Assembly: GCA_035289305.1 (NCBI GenBank)
Contig: DATDXN010000016.1
Coordinates: forward strand, 18,315-82,314
Length of the DNA: 64,000 nt
Reading direction: 5' to 3'
Origin: Patescibacteria group bacterium
GTDB lineage: Bacteria > Patescibacteriota > Microgenomatia > UBA1406 > HO2-37-13b
The position numbers and the translations under genes were made by a program. The notes beneath the pieces are model-generated. The model did not search any database. It saw nothing but the letters and a program-made list of their open reading frames with translations, and had not been told where the DNA came from. Shown here piece after piece: positions 16,964 through 44,006 of this stretch; the first letter of the stretch is position 1, and every line of letters starts with the position of its first letter.

Positions 16964-19336
16964 TTACGACTCACTTAAATATTTATTCAACATTTCTCGT
17001 ATCATATCTAATTGTTCTTTTCTTGCTTTGTTTGGTGATGTGTTCGTTCTTAATTTGTAGCAAAATTGTTTCATGTAAGTAGCAATCGTTCTTTCTCCTA
17101 ATCCAAACTCTTTTCCCACCTTTTCAAAACTATCACCGTCGAAAAATACCCTCTTTACTATTTGTCCGTCACGGGGACTTAATATCATTTCTATCAATTT
17201 CTCAAGTTCTCTTCTAATAGCATACCTATTATGCTTGCGAACAATATATGGCTCGTATAGAGTCAGATCTATCTGCGCATTCCTTCTGTTAATATATGCT
17301 TTTATAAGAGACCTTCCAATTTCTGTCTCCTGCGCTAATTCTTCTGTTAGCGATTCGATCTCATCGTGTGGAATTCCGCAAGGATGCAATTTTAAAACAA
17401 CATCAATCCTATCTCTTACTTTTTCGTATGGAAGTGTTTTATGCCTACTGCGTAAAACCATACCAATGCCCATTTGTTCTTCCTTCGCGATATAAGAAGC
17501 CGCTGCGGCACGTGCGTCATAAAAAACTTGTTGAGGACTATAATATTTCGTTTTCACTTTCATAGCTTTTTCTGTTAACTTTCTCTGAATTGCAGCAATA
17601 GCTTCATGGAGCATTTCTTCATTATCATGCGCATTTTTTGACTTATATCCTTCAACTCCGTTCATAATAGTTTTTAAGTTTAAAAGCAAAAAAACAGTAC
17701 GTCCAGCAGATGAAACATTTGTATCAATGCTTGCCATCGCTTGTAGAATTTGACGTTGAGTTTCAGTTCTCACAAAATATGGCAAAGCCTTTACCATTAA
17801 TTCGTAAAAATCGAAAGAAGAGATACCGGGATTTTTATCATATATTTCCGAAGCAACGTGATTGATTGCAGCTGCAATTTCTATGATTGATCCACCCTTT
17901 AAATGTTTTCTCAAAAGCGACCGTGCTTGCACTGAATCTATCACTGAATGAATCTTGCCTCCAAAAAACTGTATTCGTGCATCGCTTTTTACATTTTTTC
18001 CTCTTTGACTTTTTTCTTGCACACTGCCTATTTGTGTCCCGCGTAGAACATAATACGGATCGAAAATATCTGGAATAAGAATAGGCGCTTGTGTCGAACG
18101 GGTGAAATCATCAACCAATTGAATAGCAATGCTTTTATGTTTTTGCGTCTCTTCACATGGCCGCAAAATTCTTCCAAGCTCCTGCGTCGCTACGATGCCG
18201 GATTGTGTGGGAGCTAAAAATATTCCAACTTCTGTCTCCGGCGAATCCCACCCTAACTGCAACATATTAACACCGAGCACAACTTGCACCTCTCCATTTT
18301 TATGCGACTGCAAAATTTGTTCTCTCTGTTTATCAGAAAGTTTACCATGCACTGCTTGAGCAGATATCCCAAGTCTGCGAAGTTTGTCTGCCAATTGCTC
18401 AACATGATTAATTGATAAACCAAACACCACCGTTCTTTTTCCGCGAATTTTTTCGTGTATCGAAGTCATCTCATCTACTTGTTGAGGAATAAAAGATATG
18501 TTTGATGAAAGACTATGAAGACCTGCAAGTAGACCGATCGTCAAATAGTTTCGTTTCTCTGTATTAAGATATTTTTCCAATTGTCGTTGATCATACGCCC
18601 CTTCTGGAGATATAGTAATAGCGTCAACAGCCATATCAGTGGTGAAAAGATGCACATCCAATGATGTTAAGATGCCTTTTTCTATTGCCTCCTCAAGCGA
18701 CATTTCATGGATAAGGCGTGTAAATACGCCCAACCAATGTTCGTCGCCTTTTATAATATTTCGTTCTTTGTATCCCGCAAGTTGTTCGAAATAAGGCGTT
18801 GCGGTAAGTCCTATTTTGATTGCGTTTTGGGGGATATGTTTGAACAACGTATGCCTTTCCTCACCTAAAGCAGTATGTATTTCGTCACAAATAAGAAGTT
18901 CTATTTTGTTTGTGTCGATTTTTTGCTGTTCAATGAGTTTGAGAAAAGACGTATAGGTAGTATTTAATGTTTGTCGTCCTAGATTTTTTTCAGCAGTATA
19001 ATAATTACCCACTTCTACGTGAGAAGCAAAATTTTCCATTGCACGATGTGTTTGCAGAAGAATAGGACGAGTGGGTGAAAGAATAACGGTATTCAAGTTC
19101 ATTGCTCCGATGAGTTCTGCTGCGACAACGGTCTTTCCAAATCCCGTAGGCAAACTTAAATATCCCGCAATATCGCCTTTTTTCAAAGAATCAAGCACTG
19201 ATTGTGCGACTGGTTTTTGGTGCTCTCGCAGCCTACTTTCTTGAGACGCATCTAAGTATCTGGTAAGACCCTCAATTGCCTTTTCGCAAGGAGCAACTAC
19301 CCTCCCTTGCTCTGGAACAACATATCTCTCCAACAT
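16964..19336 (-). CDS. SF2 DEAH-type helicase with a C-terminal sigma-70 region-4-like HTH
   Basis: LPTGFGKT (motif I), LICDEIH (motif II), GLTATP, and QELGRILR (motif VI). The C-terminus LSPRDGQIVKRVFFDGDSFEKVGKEFGLGERTIATYMKQFCYKLR parallels the rpoD region 4.2 in this window, [49 protein letters not shown]. Confidence 0.7.
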   Translation of the reverse strand: MLERYVVPEQGRVVAPCEKAIEGLTRYLDASQESRLREHQKPVAQSVLDSLKKGDIAGYLSLPTGFGKTVVAAELIGAMNLNTVILSPTRPILLQTHRAMENFASHVEVGNYYTAEKNLGRQTLNTTYTSFLKLIEQQKIDTNKIELLICDEIHTALGEERHTLFKHIPQNAIKIGLTATPYFEQLAGYKERNIIKGDEHWLGVFTRLIHEMSLEEAIEKGILTSLDVHLFTTDMAVDAITISPEGAYDQRQLEKYLNTEKRNYLTIGLLAGLHSLSSNISFIPQQVDEMTSIHEKIRGKRTVVFGLSINHVEQLADKLRRLGISAQAVHGKLSDKQREQILQSHKNGEVQVVLGVNMLQLGWDSPETEVGIFLAPTQSGIVATQELGRILRPCEETQKHKSIAIQLVDDFTRSTQAPILIPDIFDPYYVLRGTQIGSVQEKSQRGKNVKSDARIQFFGGKIHSVIDSVQARSLLRKHLKGGSIIEIAAAINHVASEIYDKNPGISSFDFYELMVKALPYFVRTETQRQILQAMASIDTNVSSAGRTVFLLLNLKTIMNGVEGYKSKNAHDNEEMLHEAIAAIQRKLTEKAMKVKTKYYSPQQVFYDARAAAASYIAKEEQMGIGMVLRSRHKTLPYEKVRDRIDVVLKLHPCGIPHDEIESLTEELAQETEIGRSLIKAYINRRNAQIDLTLYEPYIVRKHNRYAIRRELEKLIEMILSPRDGQIVKRVFFDGDSFEKVGKEFGLGERTIATYMKQFCYKLRTNTSPNKARKEQLDMIREMLNKYLSES

Positions 19337-35848: not shown

Positions 35849-36910
35849 TTAGTCATTTAACCAGAATACAACCTGATTTTTTAATTGGAGAGAAAGCCTA
35901 TAAGCATTTGCGTGACCAAGATACCCAAGGTAAGATTGAACCGATTGATTCAATAACCCAGAAGATATTTTATTCATCTTGTAAAGTTGAACTTTTTGGT
36001 AAATCTTTTTAAATATTCTTCTTTTTGTCTTTGTTCTGGGTAAAACGAAGTGAGGAAAGATTACATATCCCAAAAAGTCTACGCCCAGATAATAGTTCTT
36101 TATTTCGATTTTTTGTGGATGTAATGATAACGTCAATTTAGAATTGAGAAATTCCTTTATACTTGTTATTAACCCTTCGAGGTATTCCCTACTCTCTGAC
36201 AAAATTATAAAATCATCCGCATAACGAATGTAATATTCTACTTTAAGTTCATGTTTTATATAGCGATCTAAAGGATCGAGGTAAATGTTAGCAAATAATT
36301 GTGAAGTGAGATTACCAATTGGCATACCCTTGGGAAATTTCAGATCTGTTGTAAATTCTGAACTAAAACTACTGACAATTTCTTTTAATAACCACAAAAA
36401 GTCTTCGTCCTGAATTCTTTTGTTCAGTAATTTTATAAGTATCTCGTGATCAACATTGGCAAAAAACTTTTTAATGTCGCATTTTAAAGCAAACAATGGA
36501 AAAGTATTATTTTTACTTGCCTTCCTTGAAAATCTGATAAATGCCTCAATGGCTTTAAGAGTTCCTTTTTCTCTGCGGCAGGAATACGAATGAGTATAAA
36601 ATGTTGAATCAAATATTTTTTCTAATAATCTGCTTGCGAGATGGTGAACAACCCTATCTTTCACACAAGCTTTTGATATGTGGCGGACTTTCGGATCCCT
36701 AATATAAAATGATTTATATCCACCATGCTCGTATGTTTTATTTTGCAAGTTTTGATGCAACTCGAATAGGTTATCTTCTAAAAATCTTGCAAAAGCTACA
36801 ACATCGGTTTTTTTCTTTTTGCCGATTATAAACTCGTCCCACGCTTGGAAAACAGCTTCAATCGTGCTACTATGAGAGTAGATGGTATGCCAAATTCTCA
36901 TGGTTTTCAA
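35849..36910 (-). CDS. Diversity-generating retroelement (DGR) reverse transcriptase
   Basis: YADD box (YIRYADDFIIL) and the DGR-specific motif-4 PIGNLTSQLFANIYL (I/LGxxxSQ). The N-terminus KKKKTDVVAFARFLEDNLFELHQNLQNKTYEHGGYKSFYIRDPKVRHIS is typical of DGR RTs. Length is about 350 aa. Confidence 0.85.
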   Translation of the reverse strand: MKTMRIWHTIYSHSSTIEAVFQAWDEFIIGKKKKTDVVAFARFLEDNLFELHQNLQNKTYEHGGYKSFYIRDPKVRHISKACVKDRVVHHLASRLLEKIFDSTFYTHSYSCRREKGTLKAIEAFIRFSRKASKNNTFPLFALKCDIKKFFANVDHEILIKLLNKRIQDEDFLWLLKEIVSSFSSEFTTDLKFPKGMPIGNLTSQLFANIYLDPLDRYIKHELKVEYYIRYADDFIILSESREYLEGLITSIKEFLNSKLTLSLHPQKIEIKNYYLGVDFLGYVIFPHFVLPRTKTKRRIFKKIYQKVQLYKMNKISSGLLNQSVQSYLGYLGHANAYRLSLQLKNQVVFWLND

Positions 36911-37264
36911 TCAAATAACCGAACTTTTGATTTTCCTATTTTTCAAAAAATATACGAAACATATAAACGTTTCTATTGTTATCTCGTCAATTTTCCCAAA
37001 AAAGATAAATATACCCTTGGTCAACGTTGCGAGAATGCGCTTTTGGATTTTTTAGAAACTATCGTAATAGCAGGAGGATTATCTAAAACTGAAAAATTTC
37101 CTGTATTGCAAAAGGCAAGTACAAAGCTTGATTTAGCAAAAATATTCATAAGATTGTGTAAAGATTTAAAAATTCTTGATAATAAAAAATACCTTGAACT
37201 GGAATCTTCTCTCCAAGAAATAGGCAGGATGCTTGGTGGTTGGATTAAATCCTCCTCCACTTAA
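36887..37264 (+). CDS. avd: Accessory variability determinant (Avd), a four-helix-bundle protein
   Basis: FPKKDKYTLGQRCENALLDF...LDLAKIFIRL...LQEIGRMLGGWIKSS matches the four-helix-bundle/Avd family. It is encoded antisense to the RT, TR and target. Confidence 0.7.
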   Translation: MPNSHGFQSNNRTFDFPIFQKIYETYKRFYCYLVNFPKKDKYTLGQRCENALLDFLETIVIAGGLSKTEKFPVLQKASTKLDLAKIFIRLCKDLKILDNKKYLELESSLQEIGRMLGGWIKSSST

Positions 37265-37274
37265 AGAAAATAAT

Positions 37275-37395
37275 ACTACCGCAACACGGAAACCGATGTT
37301 ATCGTTCGAGTTATCAGGTTGATTCCAATTGGCGTTCCCAGCACCACCGAGGTCAGAGTTACCAACCATGAGACGGTTCGAACCACCGGACTCAC
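37275..37395 (-). repeat. DGR template repeat (TR), 121-bp core
   Basis: It aligns base-for-base with 37821-37941. The minus-sense TR has A wherever the variable repeat differs, and is Asn-codon rich (VGNSDLGGAGNANWNQPDNSNDNIGF). Confidence 0.8.
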
Positions 37396-37760
37396 GCGTG
37401 TATTGCCCCTTTTCTTTCCTGAAGTAAGTATGACCTACTTCATTGTTACCACTGAATGTTAATCCAAAACACCTTATCTTTATATTCGAACCGAGATGGT
37501 CTTTAGACATTAAAGACTATCTCCTGTATTTAACATGGCTCAATCATTTCTTATTGATGCCTTCAAAAAGGGACAAGTAGTTTCATCTTCCTATTTGCTC
37601 TCTTTTGACAGGCGTACCCATCAAAACTCGGGCTTTAAATAAAAAGTGAGATTTCGTGAGATGTAGGCGTACCCACATCTGCATTAACAAAATCTATTGT
37701 GAAGCATAAAGAAGAATAAGGAAAAAATCAAGTGTAAATGCTATTTCTATTTATAGTCAT

Positions 37761-37778
37761 CTTTTAAAATTTTAAAAG
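37761..37778. other. Perfect 18-nt AT palindrome about 29 nt downstream of the target stop codon; a possible DGR hairpin or terminator
   Basis: CTTTTAAAATTTTAAAAG read directly from the sequence. Confidence 0.4.
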
Positions 37779-37806
37779 AGACCAAAAGAACCAAAGATTC
37801 AAAGTA

Positions 37807-40410
37807 TTAAGAACCGAAAACTACCGCAACACGGAAGCCGATGTAACCGCCCGAGGTCCCAGGCCGATCCCAATCGGCGTTCCCAGCACCACCGAGGTCA
37901 GAGCGACCAACCAGGAGACGGCGCGAACCACCGGACTCACGATATTCATCTTCTACCCACTCATAGGTATTAGTCTGTCCCCATCCTTCACGATTACCCA
38001 ATAAATTCCATTCTAAAGCTCTTAATAGTCGCATATCTGCTCTACCTACCAAACCAACGGTGGAGAGCACATCAGAGGTGATCCTCTGTATACCGTCTTG
38101 AGCAGTATTCCAGGTGATTTTGAATCTGTCAGAAAAACCAAGCATGGTAGTAATAGGGGTTTGGGCATAGTGGTTGCCAAAAGCTGGTTTCTCAAGGGTT
38201 TCAACAGCCATCCATTGTCCCGGCAAGGTTGGGAAATTGATTTTGTCTGCCTTTACCTCTTTCCAATACCACTTCATCAAGTTTCTTACCTTCGTGTGGT
38301 CAGCTTTGTCTGTATCTGATAATGACTCATATGGCTTCCAGTTGGGGTAATGAACATTTAATTCTTGTAAATACTCCTCAACGCTTTTATTGCGTAAGCT
38401 GCTTTGCAGTAAATCGAGCTTTGGGATAAAACGTAAAATCATACCAAGATCTTCTAATTTTCTCTTTACTTCTGGAGTAACATCAGCAGGGAGCGGCGCA
38501 ATATCTACGTGAGTACCCAATATATCCTGCCAAGCTCTTTGCTCGGCAACTTGTATTTCCGACACGGCCTCTTGCCTTCCTGCTCCTGTATCGACAGTAT
38601 CTCCCATTGGATCTTCATTACCGAGCGCTACCTCTCCTGCCATTTCCGAAGGAAGAATATAACTCTTGTCTTGATGAGGAATTTCAACCTGTATATCGGC
38701 CGTTGTGTCGGTGATTAGACCAAAAGCACGAAAGATTTTTTGTAGAGTTCGTCTCTCTTCTGGAACACTCATCGTTTTGGGATCCGTGACAAACTCACGA
38801 AGTTTATCGCTCATATAATGAGCAAAGTTTTGTCCTCTGGCAGAAGCCAGTTCCCATTCACCAAAGAGTTTAAAGAGCGTCCCTGGGTCAAGAAAATTGG
38901 TATTCAACGTTGTATCAGTGTTTCTTTGAGCATCAATGCCAAGAAGAGTCCTCATTTTTGTCGAAAAACCTTCAAAGTCGCGGTTGTGAATCCTTTGCAT
39001 CATTTCTGCAGCTTTAGTCAATTGTTCAACATATTTAACCTCATTCTGGCTCAGTTTTAATACTCCGCTTTCTGAAATTAACTTTGCCCGGATAATATCA
39101 TTCATCTCAGAAGCAGGCATATAACTTACTTCAACTCCTGTTAACTCACGAAGGATTGCAGGATCCATTTCTTCACGCTGCTTGGTCCTTTCATCTTTGG
39201 GATTTCCTGTAAAAACTTCAATAAAATTATTGGTTACATCAAAAACCTGTCCGTTAAAGCCGGGTATCTGGATCCGGTCCCCTGCACGGGCACCCATCAT
39301 GAATTTTGCAGCTAGTTGTGTTCTGGTTGAACCCCCGGTGTATTCCTCATGAATAACACCCACACCTCTTTCCAATGCTTTGGGTACAGGTCCTGGTTTC
39401 ATACCGCTCTGCACACCACCTAGTTCATCAGTCCATAACTCCCTGTACCCGAAAAGGTCGCGGGGAGTTGTGCCTTCATGCCAGTTAATAAGCTCATAGC
39501 CGCCTGTAAGATTGTTAAGAGCATAAAAAGCTAATTGTGTTTTACCTGTACCGGTTGAACCAACAAGAAAAATCTTTTTTCCTGCCAGTGCCTCACGGGT
39601 AATACGGTCAATCAGATGTTCTCTGGAGAGAGTCATGACAAAACCTTTCTCCTGAAGCTGTCTTTTATACTCCAATAACTTCTGCGTTTCAAGATAACCA
39701 AGAGTAGCAGGGGAGGCTGTGCCTTCAATACCTTTTTTTTGTTGTTCCAGTTCATCTAATTTACCCTGGAAAAAAGAGGTCTGATCGACTGAACTTTGAG
39801 TCAGCTTCCCGTGTTGTTGCTTATCTTCCAGATATCTTTTATACATTGCCTTCTTAAGCTTTCTGGTAACTCTGTCAATATCCCGGACCTGTCGTAGGGA
39901 TCGACGAGCTGCGTGATAGCGAGGCAACTCTTCATTGAATTCTTTTTCAAATCTGTCTCTTACTTGGGAACTTGCCAACAGTGCTGAGAGTCTGTGTTCA
40001 ATTTGCTTATGACGTTGCCCACCCTGGAGCTTATCTACATCTGGTTTGAGATGTAAAACCTCGTCAAGCTGGGTTTCCAGCTCCTCCAGTCCGCTTTTTT
40101 TACGGGGAATTTCTCTCCCATTTCCCGGTACACCCTCGGCGGTTAAATCAACATCTTTTATTTCAGCTATATCAGAAGAAGAGGGAAGGTAATATTCTTC
40201 CAGGTACCCTAATACTGCAAAACACTTATTTTGGATCTCTGCTTCAGATAACTCAGTTTGAGCAGCAGGCTGGGCTTTAGGGGAAATAAACCTTTTCCAG
40301 ACTAGAGGAGACAGGCGCTGGCGTGCTAATGGAGTAATCAACCAATCAGGAGCCGATGTTCTTGTGGGCAATAGTGTATCTGTTGCTTCCGCCATAAGTC
40401 TCTCTATCAT
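37807..40410 (-). CDS. DGR target protein: cytoplasmic P-loop (AAA+/MoxR-like) ATPase with a C-terminal C-type-lectin/FGE-fold variable domain
   Basis: Walker A KIFLVGSTGTGKTQLA. C-terminus ...YRESGGSRRLLVGRSDLGGAGNADWDRPGTSGGYIGFRVAVVFGS carries the variable repeat. No signal peptide or TM helix. Confidence 0.75.
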   Translation of the reverse strand: MIERLMAEATDTLLPTRTSAPDWLITPLARQRLSPLVWKRFISPKAQPAAQTELSEAEIQNKCFAVLGYLEEYYLPSSSDIAEIKDVDLTAEGVPGNGREIPRKKSGLEELETQLDEVLHLKPDVDKLQGGQRHKQIEHRLSALLASSQVRDRFEKEFNEELPRYHAARRSLRQVRDIDRVTRKLKKAMYKRYLEDKQQHGKLTQSSVDQTSFFQGKLDELEQQKKGIEGTASPATLGYLETQKLLEYKRQLQEKGFVMTLSREHLIDRITREALAGKKIFLVGSTGTGKTQLAFYALNNLTGGYELINWHEGTTPRDLFGYRELWTDELGGVQSGMKPGPVPKALERGVGVIHEEYTGGSTRTQLAAKFMMGARAGDRIQIPGFNGQVFDVTNNFIEVFTGNPKDERTKQREEMDPAILRELTGVEVSYMPASEMNDIIRAKLISESGVLKLSQNEVKYVEQLTKAAEMMQRIHNRDFEGFSTKMRTLLGIDAQRNTDTTLNTNFLDPGTLFKLFGEWELASARGQNFAHYMSDKLREFVTDPKTMSVPEERRTLQKIFRAFGLITDTTADIQVEIPHQDKSYILPSEMAGEVALGNEDPMGDTVDTGAGRQEAVSEIQVAEQRAWQDILGTHVDIAPLPADVTPEVKRKLEDLGMILRFIPKLDLLQSSLRNKSVEEYLQELNVHYPNWKPYESLSDTDKADHTKVRNLMKWYWKEVKADKINFPTLPGQWMAVETLEKPAFGNHYAQTPITTMLGFSDRFKITWNTAQDGIQRITSDVLSTVGLVGRADMRLLRALEWNLLGNREGWGQTNTYEWVEDEYRESGGSRRLLVGRSDLGGAGNADWDRPGTSGGYIGFRVAVVFGS
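37821..37941 (-). repeat. DGR variable repeat (VR) at the 3' end of the target gene
   Basis: 17 mismatches against the TR across 121 bp. 15 are at positions where the TR coding strand has A; the other 2 are non-A changes, one near the 3' (IMH-like) end. Confidence 0.8.
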
Positions 40411-40444: not shown

Positions 40445-43102
40445 CTATAGTTTTGATAATTGTTTCATTAATAATTTATGTCTTACCAGAGTGGCTTCCC
40501 TCACGTCATCAATTACAACTGCTGTATCCGGGTCTGCCGGATCATGGCAGACAATTTTAATATCCTGCGCCTCGCTTCCAAATCCTATACCTTGCACTAC
40601 AACACCGGCTGCCCGAAGCTCTTTAATTTCGTTGATACATCCGGCCTGATCGTCTACATCACCGTCTGAAACAACAGTCAAAACTTTCGCATAACCTCCT
40701 TTTTTAATCTTTTGTAAAGTGGCAGGATCCAGTGCTTCCCGATATTGTTTTAATGATTCACGAAGACCTCTTGATGACTGATTATGTGATTTTAACACAC
40801 CGTCAAGCTCAACAAGACCTCTTTCAGTAATAAAATCTGTGGATTCTTGGGCAACAGAAGTCCAATCACCAAATACTGCCACTCTTGATTTAACTGCCAA
40901 AGGTGTAGTCATACATCCTCTGTATCGGGAAAGTCCCAGTCGTTCATTAAGATTTTTAATGTTATATTCACTGCTTAGCACCATCTTCCGCTGTTCATCA
41001 GCAGGCAGGCCGCTCATTGACCCGGAAATATCCAGAATAAAATCATCTTCAAAAACAGAAACTTCTACTCGTTCTTTTTGTCTTACGTGTGACATCTGGT
41101 ACCCCAAAGGGTCATCCTCGTACGAACGAATATCGACAAATGCTGTCACAGAATCATCCAAAATTTCACCTTCGCTCTGTCTCACAGGACCTTTATATAC
41201 CTGCTGGGGAATTTCCCTGCGTTTATAAAGTAAATCAAATAACTGTCGCCATTCATCGTATATGGTACTTTGTCTGTGACTGATACTGGACTGCGCAGGA
41301 ACTGGAGTTCTGTTGACCCCGTTAATCCAGGTTTCCAGCTGATGCCACTGCTCCCATGCAATTCCTTTTTCCTGCTCAAACTGCTTGGCAGCTAATTCTT
41401 CCGGAGTGGGAGGTTGAATTGTTTGTTGATCTTGTTGAGAAAATTCTTGGTACAATTTTTCTATTTCCTCTTGGCTTAATTCAGATTGACCAACTAAAGA
41501 TTCTCCAAAATCCCCTTCAAGAGGTTCCTGATCACTATCCTGTTCTTCCTGCTTATCCTGTTTTTTTGCAGGTGTGGCATCCATACCTTTATGTATCCAT
41601 ATTTCCTTATCGGGATCCCAAACCTCTCCCCAGGCATGTTTATCCATTCCTTTAGCCTCAACAATTGCAAAATCAAAACGAGGATCTTTACTCCCTACAT
41701 AAGACCCTGTTGCAATACGGGAAGCAATCCTTATCCTTTTACACAGTTCATCCCGAAAAATATTTGCCCAGTAACAGTGGGCAATCCCTGTCTCGGTCAT
41801 TTTAGTCCAGAGTTCCTGTGGGAATACAGATAAATACAGGGAATCAATTTGACCTATTTCTGCAGCATCTTCCGGGTAACGAAACTTTTTACGGACATAG
41901 AGAGCAATTTCTCGTGCTTTTTGAACATCATTCATCCAATTTTGAGAAGATAATTCATCAAGGAACTCCTGTGTCTGTGGATCAACAGCTCCTCCCACAG
42001 GGATAAGATCACGATCACTAGGGGAAACATTGAGTTGATTAGATTGTGTTTCAGTCAGAACAAAATCGAATGAAAATTTTCCTGATGCTGCTTGTCTTTG
42101 TGTTCTGGGGTCAAGATAAACAATACCAAGATCATCTCTCATAAAGTGGAGTGAGTTAGCTGGCTGGAGCGTAGAAACTAATGGCAGAGTTCCATAAGGA
42201 AGTTTAACAAGAACTTCCTGTCCTGGTTGTATAACCCCTTCATACGTCCTTTTGGTTTTCCACACCGATTCATCTTCAGGAGCCTCATCAATATCCCACG
42301 ATTGTTTCATGCCTGATTCCTTAACAATTTGCCTTGTGCTTGGATCGTAGCGACATACCTGTTCTCTATAGTAGCCCCCGTAAAAAGGAGTAACTCTAAC
42401 AGCAATATCTGCCTCCTGAATAGGTTCTTTATCGTCGTTGATATCTTGAGTTTGAAATGGTCGATATTCAAACTTTTGAGATTGACCTGTTTGTCTATCA
42501 GTAGCAGCGAGTTCATCAATAAGAGGTTTCAAATGAGTTGCAAAATTTTGCCCGTCAAATCGAAAGTGACGACCACAGGCGATATAATCAACTAAACTTT
42601 GACCTCGGGACTTTGGGATTTTCTTGACCGCTTGAGTTACTGCATCTGAAAGGTGGTCTGGATATCTACCTGTTAGTACGTATGTATCAAGCGCCCATTG
42701 AAATTCTTGAACAAGCGTTTGATTTTGAGAATTAATGGGTTGATCACGAAGGATATCAGGGTTACTTTCTTTCAATCTTGCTAATCCTTGCCATCTAAGG
42801 ATTGGCTCACTGGCTTCGGGATAATCACGAATTGTTTGTAACAAGATACTTGCATCTTTTCGAATTGCTTGGGTGAGTCCCAAATGACCAGCCACCTGTC
42901 GCAAAGTTGCTATGCGCGCCTGGTCTTCGTTTTGAAATAAAGTCGTATTAACGCGCAGTTTTTGGTGACCTTCTGACCAAGCCATTCTCGCGCCTGTTTT
43001 TCTGGATAACACTACTACATCGCCATATACTTTTCTTCCTTCTTCGTGAGGAATTAAAGCACTTTCAACTGATGTGATCCCGACAGACTGTCTTTCATCC
43101 AT
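40445..43102 (-). CDS. Transglutaminase-like cysteine-protease domain plus C-terminal von Willebrand factor A (VWA) domain protein
   Basis: TGase-like GIAHCYWANIFRDELCKRIRIASR and HAWGEVWDPDKEIWIHKGMDATP (Cys-His-Asp). VWA MIDAS motif DISGSMSG...TVVSDGDVDD. The start is taken at MDERQ (43100-43102), because the longer ORF would overlap the divergent rmlD-like gene. Confidence 0.65.
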   Translation of the reverse strand: MDERQSVGITSVESALIPHEEGRKVYGDVVVLSRKTGARMAWSEGHQKLRVNTTLFQNEDQARIATLRQVAGHLGLTQAIRKDASILLQTIRDYPEASEPILRWQGLARLKESNPDILRDQPINSQNQTLVQEFQWALDTYVLTGRYPDHLSDAVTQAVKKIPKSRGQSLVDYIACGRHFRFDGQNFATHLKPLIDELAATDRQTGQSQKFEYRPFQTQDINDDKEPIQEADIAVRVTPFYGGYYREQVCRYDPSTRQIVKESGMKQSWDIDEAPEDESVWKTKRTYEGVIQPGQEVLVKLPYGTLPLVSTLQPANSLHFMRDDLGIVYLDPRTQRQAASGKFSFDFVLTETQSNQLNVSPSDRDLIPVGGAVDPQTQEFLDELSSQNWMNDVQKAREIALYVRKKFRYPEDAAEIGQIDSLYLSVFPQELWTKMTETGIAHCYWANIFRDELCKRIRIASRIATGSYVGSKDPRFDFAIVEAKGMDKHAWGEVWDPDKEIWIHKGMDATPAKKQDKQEEQDSDQEPLEGDFGESLVGQSELSQEEIEKLYQEFSQQDQQTIQPPTPEELAAKQFEQEKGIAWEQWHQLETWINGVNRTPVPAQSSISHRQSTIYDEWRQLFDLLYKRREIPQQVYKGPVRQSEGEILDDSVTAFVDIRSYEDDPLGYQMSHVRQKERVEVSVFEDDFILDISGSMSGLPADEQRKMVLSSEYNIKNLNERLGLSRYRGCMTTPLAVKSRVAVFGDWTSVAQESTDFITERGLVELDGVLKSHNQSSRGLRESLKQYREALDPATLQKIKKGGYAKVLTVVSDGDVDDQAGCINEIKELRAAGVVVQGIGFGSEAQDIKIVCHDPADPDTAVVIDDVREATLVRHKLLMKQLSKL

Positions 43103-43151: not shown

Positions 43152-44006
43152 ATGAATAAAAAAATGGTAGTGGCGGCGACGGGTCTTGATGGACTCGTGG
43201 GATCACGAGTGAGAGAACTACTTGAGGATAAAATACAGTTCATACCTCTACCCAAAGAAATCATTGATATAACGAAAAAAGATTCGGTAAAACAGGCTTT
43301 ACAGTCAATTGACTTTGATATATTTCTGCATCTTGCAGCGTATACCAATGTAGACCTTGCGGAAAAAGAAAAAAGTCTAGCGTGGAGCGTTAATGTTGCG
43401 GGAACAAAAAATGTATTTGAAGTAGTTTCATCGCGTGAAAAAAAAATGATATACATCTCCACAGACTTCGTGTTTGATGGAGAAAACGCGCCATTTACCG
43501 AAGATTCTCCTCCCCGTCCCATCTCGCACTATGGCATGACGAAATATGAAGGAGAGAAAATCGTCAAAGATCATGCAATGATTGTCCGTTTCAGCTACCC
43601 TTATCGAGCATACTATGAGCCAAAAAAAGATATTGTGCGATCAATTCTTGCTGCTTTGAAAGACAAAAAACACATACAGGGAGTCGTTGATCAAATAATC
43701 ACGTTTACCTTCATTGACGATATTGCGCATGCACTACACTATCTTTTTCTCAACTATGCGCCTGAAATCTATCATGTTGTCGGAAAAGATAGTTTATCAG
43801 CCTATGATGCAATTATGACTATAGCTAAAGTTTTTGAGCTTGATACTTCTCTCGTCTCAAAAACGACATATGATGAGTTTTATAAAGGTAAAGCAAAACG
43901 TCCCAAAAAAGGAATTGTGAAATCAAAGAAAAATGTTTTTTACCCGATGAAAAGTTTAAAGGAAGGTTTAATGGAGATTAAAAAACAAAATTGTCTTTTA
44001 AAGTAA
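43152..44006 (+). CDS. dTDP-4-dehydrorhamnose reductase-like (RmlD family) NAD(P)-dependent sugar reductase
   Basis: The 284-aa ORF has the HYGMTK catalytic YxxxK region and is short-chain Rossmann-like. Confidence 0.7.
   Translation: MNKKMVVAATGLDGLVGSRVRELLEDKIQFIPLPKEIIDITKKDSVKQALQSIDFDIFLHLAAYTNVDLAEKEKSLAWSVNVAGTKNVFEVVSSREKKMIYISTDFVFDGENAPFTEDSPPRPISHYGMTKYEGEKIVKDHAMIVRFSYPYRAYYEPKKDIVRSILAALKDKKHIQGVVDQIITFTFIDDIAHALHYLFLNYAPEIYHVVGKDSLSAYDAIMTIAKVFELDTSLVSKTTYDEFYKGKAKRPKKGIVKSKKNVFYPMKSLKEGLMEIKKQNCLLK

Follow-up and report, generated by a model that had tools for sequence, protein, structure and literature searches.

A probably active diversity-generating retroelement of a Patescibacteria bacterium, with a conserved structured leader upstream of its template repeat

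The 64,000-nucleotide (nt) stretch of DNA analyzed here (the window; positions 18,315 to 82,314 of contig DATDXN010000016.1, assembly GCA_035289305.1) carries what is almost certainly a chromosomal diversity-generating retroelement (DGR) of a Patescibacteria, or Candidate Phyla Radiation (CPR), bacterium. Its layout of target gene, template repeat (TR), reversed accessory variability determinant gene (avd) and reverse transcriptase (RT) gene is architecture B3 of CPR DGRs; the element is thus a member of a class catalogued since 2017-2018, and nothing essential sets it apart. It is very probably active in the sampled populations, or was so very recently. New in this analysis is a structured leader of about 295 nt upstream of TR, which is likely to be the equivalent, by analogy, of the Spacer RNA of the Bordetella phage BPP-1 DGR. 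Taken as a whole, a CPR DGR with recent activity, a leader-guided mechanism and a diversified ATPase tip is, with good confidence, the best explanation of the locus. A first-pass annotation of this DNA had claimed a complete DGR, and the RT, the Avd protein, the pairing of TR with a variable repeat (VR) and the fold around VR each withstood testing.

The TR/VR pair is the central evidence. A repeat search returned a direct repeat of 133 nt with 84% identity (37264-37396 versus 37809-37941; offset 545), within which the 121-base-pair repeat claimed earlier is real, with TR at 37275-37395 aligning without gaps on the minus strand to 37820-37940; the VR coordinates first given, 37821-37941, were one base too high. 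The adenine bias was also borne out on recounting, as 15 of the 17 mismatches fall at TR adenines and the other two at T on the coding (minus) strand, an enrichment that is highly significant given a TR with 25 A in 121 nt (Fisher's exact test, p=6.8e-11). Codon positions 1 and 2 of the 867-amino-acid (aa) open reading frame (ORF) of the target hold 14 of these 15 adenine changes, VR ends 11 nt upstream of that ORF's stop codon, and the TR and VR peptide strings quoted in the annotation are correct on re-translation. At the 3' ends, homology stops at GCGGTAGT, after which the VR flank reads TTTCGGTTC and the TR flank ATTATTTTC; in DGRs, an IMH (initiation of mutagenic homing) site at the VR 3' end and a differing IMH* at the TR 3' end define direction, and these flanks are candidates for such a pair. 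No second VR was found in the window when both strands were searched with adenine positions ignored (best unrelated score, 43/96).

The RT contains both of the motifs attributed to it, YADD and IGNLTSQ. Its top relative in the PDB is the RT of BPP-1, bRT (8ub7; E=5.8e-36, 128 bits), relative to at most 67 bits for RTs of group II introns and retrons, and its IGNLTSQ aligns to the IGSLTSQ stretch of bRT, in which I181 and Q187 contact the template and the deoxynucleoside triphosphate (bioRxiv 10.1101/2023.10.23.563531). Judged from these matches, the RT is of the DGR type, as had been proposed, with its catalytic motifs intact. The adjacent ORF was likewise correctly described as Avd-like, as it passes the NCBIfam model NF033474 (92.6 bits versus a cut-off of 80); a PDB sequence search with Avd gave a weak match to bAvd alone (E=0.74). 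The avd start codon is uncertain, with candidates at TTG 36845, ATG 36872 and ATG 36887.

The first-pass annotation had also singled out avd as antisense. Its strand is indeed opposite to that of RT, TR and VR, but CPR DGRs are normally laid out in this way: 90% of the 126 in one survey have architecture B3, TR-(avd)-RT with a reversed avd (Wu et al. 2018, PMC5758913). Head-to-head on opposite strands, the RT and avd ORFs share up to 66 nt (36845-36910), and therefore each promoter must lie inside the other gene or further off; a read-through transcript from TR to RT would be antisense to all of avd. Public gene calls on the same contig include a TR-containing 114-aa ORF and a 42-aa ORF, and avd on the opposite strand is not called.

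Upstream of TR, the 410 nt that separate it from the target stop codon are conserved in two related loci, L007 and L008. To this could be added 80 loci from an RT scan of metagenome contigs, with RTs 46-74% identical to that of the window. A sequence profile of the leader (nhmmer) found it in 38 related loci, on the RT strand in 36 and on the other strand in one, and it lies 5' of TR in 32 of the 38, those with a locatable adenine-biased TR/VR pair. RNAalifold, applied to a MAFFT alignment of 37 leaders, gave 29 base pairs, 24 of them with compensatory changes. A covariance model of the 5' half of the leader (R1; 128 positions, 26 pairs) had a single match in the window, at 37692-37571 (103.8 bits, E=4.5e-16), and matched 51 other loci; of the 54 related loci that extend 950 nt or more upstream of the RT gene, 42 had a match, a median 775 nt upstream of the RT start. 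In the model-fitted alignment, 96.9% of cells are paired, relative to 66% when shuffled and about 43% with partners slid, and double-sided changes occur in 25 of the 26 pairs. Rfam holds no family for the leader, either at the gathering score in the window or at E<=1 in 37200-37800.

Two long-range duplexes connect the leader to the flanks of TR. In the first, the leader strand formed by AGGAAGAUGA, A37582 and ACUACU pairs with the last six bases of TR (GGUAGU), A37274 and UUAUUUUCUU; between loci the two strands diverge yet remain complementary, for example as GAGACAA/UUGUCUC, GGAGACUUCU/GGAAGUCUCC and AAUUUAGGCAC/GUGUCUAAAUC. With the conserved motif excluded, cognate partners in 30 loci outscored permuted ones (RNAduplex plus register; z=-5.9, 0/20000). 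In the second, UUGUCCCUUUU pairs with AAAAGGGGCAA, just 5' of TR, again with covariation (UUGCUUACUUU/AAAGUAAGCAA, UUGCCAGCUUU/AAAGCUGGCAA) and a clear excess over permuted partners in 30 loci (z=-10, 0/20000). Folding 37696-37262 as a single sequence by minimum free energy (MFE) reproduces the two hairpins and the two duplexes (z=-4.4). Simple covariation of a leader ACUNC with the TR-end pentamer was rejected, as loci with ACUUC and ACUGC gave crossed, non-complementary partners; the ACUNC pairing is coherent only together with the adjacent purine box and a common register. When RNAduplex was run without restriction on the full leader and the TR tail, the duplexes were long and uninformative, and a leader 6-mer match at 37437, upstream of TR, was dropped as chance since it is absent from L007. 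The coordinates of all features are collected in Table 1.

Table 1. Features of the retroelement, its leader RNA and the adjacent genes (window coordinates).
Feature	Position	Strand	Basis or remark
RT gene of the DGR, 353 aa	35849..36910	-	Pfam RVT_1 E=1.6e-24; IGNLTSQ at residue 198, YADD at 230
avd	36845..37264	+	NF033474 DivGenRetAVD 92.6 bits; Pfam bAvd E=7e-19, residues 31-136
Pyrimidine box UUAUUUUCUU, 3' of TR	37264..37273	-	Pairs with leader purine box; in MFE fold
TR	37275..37396	-	Invariant in every assembly containing TR
Last 6 nt of TR, GGUAGU	37280-37275	-	Pairs with leader ACUACU
Varied adenines of TR	between 37378 and 37300	-	TR/VR comparison
AAAAGGGGCAA, 7 nt 5' of TR	37403..37413	-	3' strand of stop-like duplex; pairs with leader 37576-37566
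14-bp hairpin H5, between conserved single strand and TR	37493..37524	-	Compensatory changes between window, L007 and L008
Conserved single strand AAAUACAGGAGA	37520..37531	-	Near-invariant AAUAAAAUACAGGA block in 37-sequence alignment A4
Variable hairpin H4	37537..37561	-	MFE fold; alignment of relatives
Leader core	37566..37592	-	Proposed primer strand, priming adenosine region and stop strand
Stop-like strand UUGUCCCUUUU	37576-37566	-	Leader core
ACUACU	37581-37576	-	Leader core; pairs with TR end
Purine box AGGAAGAUGA	37592-37583	-	Leader core; followed by A 37582
Leader 5' half: two UACG-capped stem-loops and enclosing stems	37571..37692	-	Covariance model R1
Stem-loop H2, UACG cap	37627-37602	-	Covariance model; MFE fold
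Stem-loop H1, UACG cap	37681-37658	-	Covariance model; MFE fold
Promoter-like TTGATT-17 nt-TATGCT	37703..37731	-	By eye; upstream of leader
Perfect AT-only palindrome TCTTTTAAAATTTTAAAAGA, 20 nt	37760..37779	-	28 nt past target stop codon
VR	37820..37941	-	Encodes target residues ~824-863; four DNA haplotypes in public assemblies
Target gene, 867 aa	37807..40410	-	N-terminal helical region, AAA_5/MoxR-type ATPase, C-terminal domain with VR
Target AAA_5/MoxR-type domain	residues 280-421 (39148-39573)	-	Walker A GSTGTGKT at residue 284
Target C-terminal domain	residues 625-867	-	Ends in C-type-lectin/FGE-like fold carrying VR
Partner gene, 885 aa, upstream of target	40445..43102	-	Pfam Transglut_core 30.3 bits; C-terminal vWA

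The arrangement of these elements is best read against BPP-1, whose DGR runs mtd-avd-TR-Sp-brt and for which a cryo-EM structure of the bRT-Avd-RNA particle is available (8ub7; Handa et al., bioRxiv 10.1101/2023.10.23.563531). There, the 140-nt Spacer (Sp) follows TR and begins with an Avd-binding stem-loop with a UNCG tetraloop (Sp3-33); a primer strand (Sp47-56) pairs with TR117-129 and ends in the priming A56; and after two more nucleotides, Sp59-70 pairs just upstream of TR ("cPRT Stop"), followed by the single-stranded Thumb Ring and an RT-binding stem-loop (bioRxiv 10.1101/2023.10.23.563531). The leader presents its elements in a like order, namely UACG stem-loops, a purine primer-like strand, an A, six nucleotides, a stop-like strand, a variable hairpin, the single strand AAAUACAGGAGA and a 14-bp hairpin; from this shared order we infer a Spacer equivalent that is permuted relative to TR. 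By the same analogy, the AAAUACAGGAGA strand is a possible counterpart of the Thumb Ring, and H5 a possible counterpart of the RT-binding stem-loop. Features of the BPP-1 type indicated by covariation, permutation and the MFE fold are a duplex at each flank of TR, with a template:primer-like one at the 3' flank, and a UNCG-capped stem-loop.

The two systems further share homologous RT and Avd proteins, adenine-specific transfer from TR to VR and a VR in a C-type-lectin (CLec) fold. Unlike in BPP-1, the Sp-like RNA lies 5' rather than 3' of TR. The pyrimidine box runs up to the avd stop codon (TAA 37262-37264, plus strand), and therefore no room is left for a downstream Spacer; just these 10 nt, and no immediate downstream Spacer of the BPP-1 type, follow TR. 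Also unlike in BPP-1, avd is on the opposite strand, and therefore the upstream strand of the stop duplex cannot come from its 3' codons. With the leader upstream, avd could follow the template directly on the other strand. Further differences are the presence of two UACG stem-loops rather than one, a six-base-pair helix over the first templated bases, and a target that is a predicted cytoplasmic ATPase rather than a phage tail fibre.

By analogy with the Bordetella phage particle, the element may work as follows. Transcription from the upstream promoter-like site would yield a minus-strand RNA of some 435 nt (~37696 to 37262), and its first ~295 nt would fold as the conserved leader, whose pairings to the TR flanks and to the last six TR bases are supported by covariation. 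The two long-range duplexes would then clamp TR as a loop, such that a leader adenosine, 37582 or 37581, would prime cDNA synthesis at the TR 3' end, with a stop at the TR 5' end. That one of these two nucleotides is the primer is a doubtful assignment, modeled on BPP-1, and both the priming chemistry and the binding of proteins by the leader are likewise proposed by analogy. Finally, the RT, together with pentameric Avd, would copy TR while misincorporating opposite adenines, and the cDNA would replace VR at the 3' end of the 867-aa gene; the adenine-specific TR/VR differences match the outcome of this step.

It is conceivable, if unlikely, that the leader is instead a separate element, such as a 3' untranslated region or terminator of the target gene, a regulatory RNA, or a module that binds Avd or RT without priming, and that the primer comes from downstream RNA (antisense avd) or in trans. 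The role of the leader in priming is, after all, a proposal, and the junction nucleotide of the primer-like duplex varies in some loci. Moreover, Handa et al. predicted that CPR DGRs, too, have putative stem-loops for Avd binding downstream of TR (bioRxiv 10.1101/2023.10.23.563531); these would conflict with an exclusively upstream Spacer, and the two readings would need to be reconciled. Their survey of other DGRs covered 40 nt upstream and 100 nt downstream of TR only (bioRxiv 10.1101/2023.10.23.563531). Other points also weigh against the model given above. The leader model had no match in 12 of the 54 loci (L024, L033, L038, L061, L062, L066, L080, L081, L084, L086, L091 and L094), in which the leader may have diverged or the architecture may differ; the pair counts come from an alignment fitted to the model, a procedure that biases them towards structure; the loci in the permutation tests are not phylogenetically independent; and a consensus promoter scan did not list the TTGATT-17-TATGCT site. 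Against a separate element stand the covariation of two neighbouring leader segments with the 3' and 5' flanks of TR, the element order that mirrors the BPP-1 Sp, the pyrimidine box that stops at the avd stop codon, and the position of the leader, which is always on the TR strand and 5' of TR. A Spacer equivalent placed upstream of TR is therefore retained as the likely identity of the leader. An upstream Spacer was not found described in the papers accessible to the search.

In the region between the leader and the target gene, the promoter-like hexamers are conserved among the window, L007 and L008, with a spacer that varies. At the position of the TCTTTTAAAATTTTAAAAGA palindrome, relatives carry GC-rich hairpins or terminator-like stems, and the palindrome may be a terminator or cruciform counterpart.

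Activity was assessed by comparing independent assemblies, as a stand-in for a read-level test. The 90%-identity cluster of the target protein has nine members and 26 variable alignment columns, five of which reflect alternative start sites; of the other 21, 15 fall in residues 829-857, within VR, and the approximately 820 residues outside VR hold only six. DNA was fetched for four target variants. TR is base-identical in every assembly that contains it, and VR occurs as four haplotypes that differ from TR at 17, 19, 21 and 22 positions, of which 15, 17, 19 and 20, respectively, are TR adenines. Between them, the haplotypes have substituted 23 of the 25 TR adenines, the two unvaried ones being the outermost, and 20 of the 24 sites that are polymorphic among the VRs are TR-adenine positions. 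An invariant TR accompanied by VR haplotypes with changes almost confined to adenines is the pattern predicted by repeated mutagenic homing. Three of the four haplotypes have in common a non-adenine change of CG to TT (TR 37379-37380; VR 37924-37925), which directly adjoins an A to T change (TCGAAC to TTTTAC) and looks like a single multi-base event outside adenine mutagenesis.

It is very improbable that the locus is instead a decayed or inactive relic, with TR and VR as old paralogous repeats and the VR differences due to strain polymorphism or recombination. In favour of a relic, the comparison is limited to consensus sequences of assemblies, some of which may share samples or a site; four non-adenine positions, and only four, differ across the VR haplotypes; two VR protein haplotypes (P0006 and P0007) look mosaic, joining the first half of one haplotype to the second half of another, and could be products of partial-length homing, recombination or assembly chimerism; and the same VR is present in both copies of a duplicated scaffold, described below. 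A relic would, however, leave unexplained why TR is identical throughout while VR takes four forms, why VR polymorphism concentrates at TR-adenine positions, and why the rest of the protein is nearly invariant among the nine cluster members; the catalytic motifs of the RT, and Avd, are also intact. Recent or current activity is thus the favoured reading.

The duplicated scaffold deserves a description of its own. In two assemblies, a megahit contig and the ANAN16-1 scaffold, position 37575 of the window is joined back to 43432, which implies a 5,845-bp tandem duplication or circle whose unit consists of an epimerase fragment, the transglutaminase-vWA gene, the target gene and half of the leader. 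Both copies in the duplicated scaffold bear the same VR. The junction is a 13-nt direct repeat, GATGAAACTACTT (window 37575-37587 and 43420-43432; L003:8824-8836; L005:8824-8836), which occurs just twice in the 64-kb window, at the proposed leader primer site and inside the epimerase ORF. The junction could stem from a true duplication, from excision of a circle or from some RT-related event.

It is hardly credible that the 114-aa ORF called in public records (37166-37510, minus strand) encodes a genuine protein, paralogous to the target C-terminus but truncated, even though it is an open frame with an ATG. It has no Pfam match; covarying RNA helices span its 5' part, and the final 100 nt at its 3' end are shared with avd on the opposite strand. 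Where the supposed paralogue varies, this ORF does not, and its asparagine-rich AAC codons are a DGR template signature. Finally, an RT of the group II intron, retron or defence (DRT/Abi) type next to an unrelated repeat is virtually impossible, in spite of an NCBIfam search in which no model passed and group_II_RT_mat scored highest (157 bits versus a cut-off of 300) and of generic RT and DRT matches from PADLOC, given the much closer match to bRT, the adjacent Avd and adenine-specific TR/VR pair, the occurrence of TR/VR pairs throughout the RT relatives, and no group II intron or retron RNA at Rfam thresholds in the window or at E<=1 in 37200-37800.

The diversified protein itself combines an ATPase with a variable tip, and the earlier assignment of VR to a C-type-lectin fold holds, as VR sits in a CLec/FGE-like fold. 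A Foldseek search with the target listed the same fold families at weaker significance, and PDB sequence searches gave no match for the target and none for the C-terminus of its partner. AAA_5 is present in all 47 target-family members, some of which also have weak bpMoxR or AAA_3 matches. No signal peptide and no transmembrane or hydrophobic segment was detected in the target (maximum 19-residue hydropathy, 0.94), and the protein is predicted to be cytoplasmic. The partner encoded directly upstream has a transglutaminase-like core and a MIDAS motif, DISGS, at residue 691; precomputed VWA matches exist for 11 of 38 partner homologues, and partner-target synteny is kept in L007-L010. The likeliest role, if a tentative one, would be the sensing of ligands inside the cell by a hypervariable protein that is coupled to an effector pair of ATPase and vWA protein; by analogy with MoxR-vWA systems, the CLec tip would bind a variable ligand and the ATPase/vWA pair would transduce the signal or act upon it. 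Some results pull the other way: the VWA match in the window protein (E=0.002) is under the Pfam gathering score, and PADLOC returned no match for the target, Avd or the partner. In a Pacebacteria metagenome-assembled genome (MAG; L009, PFDK01000026.1), the transglutaminase-vWA and AAA-CLec pair is present, and no RT, avd or TR was found in the 8 kb downstream of it; such a pair therefore either occurs without a DGR beside it or belongs here to a genome that has its DGR at another place.

Comparable proteins are known from other bacteria. The MoxR-vWA ternary conflict systems (VMAP), found mainly in multicellular bacteria, have a vWA protein with a fused FGS/CLec domain, which a DGR diversifies (Kaur et al. 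2020, PMC7159879). As in those systems, a MoxR-clade AAA+ gene here adjoins a vWA gene, and the module includes a DGR-diversified CLec/FGS domain; unlike in those systems, the ATPase rather than the vWA protein bears the fused CLec domain, a transglutaminase-like core is part of the vWA protein, and the host is unicellular and ultra-small. No third component (VMAP, iSTAND, FtsH or beta-propeller) was found beside the gene pair. Likewise, DGR-diversified STAND-NTPase "antigen sensor" proteins are described from multicellular bacteria (PMC10907252), and NTPase-FGS systems with DGRs have been described as well (PMC8195603). The target resembles these sensors in being an intracellular NTPase with a C-terminal DGR-diversified CLec domain, and differs in its AAA_5/MoxR-type ATPase and in host biology; no effector-associated or Death-like adaptor domains were detected here.

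The host assignment rests on several observations. The window, at ~40% G+C, contains no tRNA and no Rfam family at gathering score, and the neighbouring genes are cellular-looking, including a type IV pilus/type II secretion ATPase and platform protein, glycosyltransferases and sugar epimerases; the context of the DGR is chromosomal and non-phage. An identical target protein is found on contigs of JGI sample 3300002502 and of ENA assemblies, HLC94347.1, an almost identical protein at NCBI, carries the label Patescibacteria group bacterium, and all 65 homologues with a taxon name are from Patescibacteria lineages. Relatives among the genome-collection loci come from Pacebacteria, Roizmanbacteria and Peribacteria MAGs, with one record titled Gammaproteobacteria. 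The latter, L007 (CAZSWA010000002.1), is the closest genome-collection relative, with 64% target identity and the same DGR layout; its title, "uncultured Gammaproteobacteria bacterium", is probably a binning or labelling error for a contig of Patescibacteria origin.

A scan of species-representative genomes with the target alignment, swamped by its Walker-A pattern, returned only eight loci of the target family. L007 and L008 have the order transglutaminase-vWA, target, TR, reversed avd, RT; L012 and L013 have target, TR, reversed avd and RT, with no match to the window's transglutaminase-vWA protein; and in L010, avd and RT are both reversed. Adenine-biased TR/VR pairs occur in every DGR-bearing genome relative (13/13; 21/22; 15/19; 14/15 and 18/19; 21/21 and 23/25). 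In the Peribacteria relatives L012 (5086-6809) and L013 (10306-11446), one TR serves two VRs, the C-terminal CLec-type region being duplicated as a second unit downstream of the ATPase gene (repeat of 701 nt with 67% identity in L012).

These traits agree with published surveys of CPR DGRs, in which targets designated "UVR4" (category g1) have midasin AAA or P-loop motifs and a VR of undecided fold (Wu et al. 2018, PMC5758913), and in which a CPR-restricted clade (DGR clade 2) has targets without recognizable domains (Roux et al. 2021, PMC8144416). The element is like the CPR DGRs of Wu et al. 2018 in its inverted avd order, Patescibacteria host, groundwater source and non-phage chromosomal context, and in having an AAA/midasin-type ATPase target with a C-terminal VR missed by sequence profiles. 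To this class are added here the CLec/FGE fold of the VR domain, the transglutaminase-vWA partner and the leader RNA.

The results provide cross-assembly evidence for a CPR DGR diversifying in the field, at 23 of 25 programmed sites. For a CPR target family that the surveys had left without a settled fold or function, they supply a C-type-lectin fold and a MoxR/vWA-transglutaminase context. An intracellular target bears on whether DGRs are receptor-diversifying conflict systems in minimal symbionts, and the leader offers a concrete model for cDNA priming and stopping in inverted-avd DGRs. It also defines a compact RNA of ~435 nt which, together with two small proteins, could be reconstituted or engineered. 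It is tempting to go further, with a proposal that is presently doubted somewhat more than believed: the whole CPR DGR branch may use a permuted guide RNA, with a Spacer equivalent before TR that includes Avd- and RT-binding stem-loops, a primer strand with a priming adenosine, and a stop strand, and the element may diversify a cytoplasmic MoxR-type ATPase that works with a vWA-transglutaminase partner. If true, the permuted guide RNA would explain how the inverted-avd (B3) order can work, and hypervariable intracellular receptors would extend to ultra-small unicellular symbionts, beyond the multicellular bacteria in which they are thought to be concentrated.

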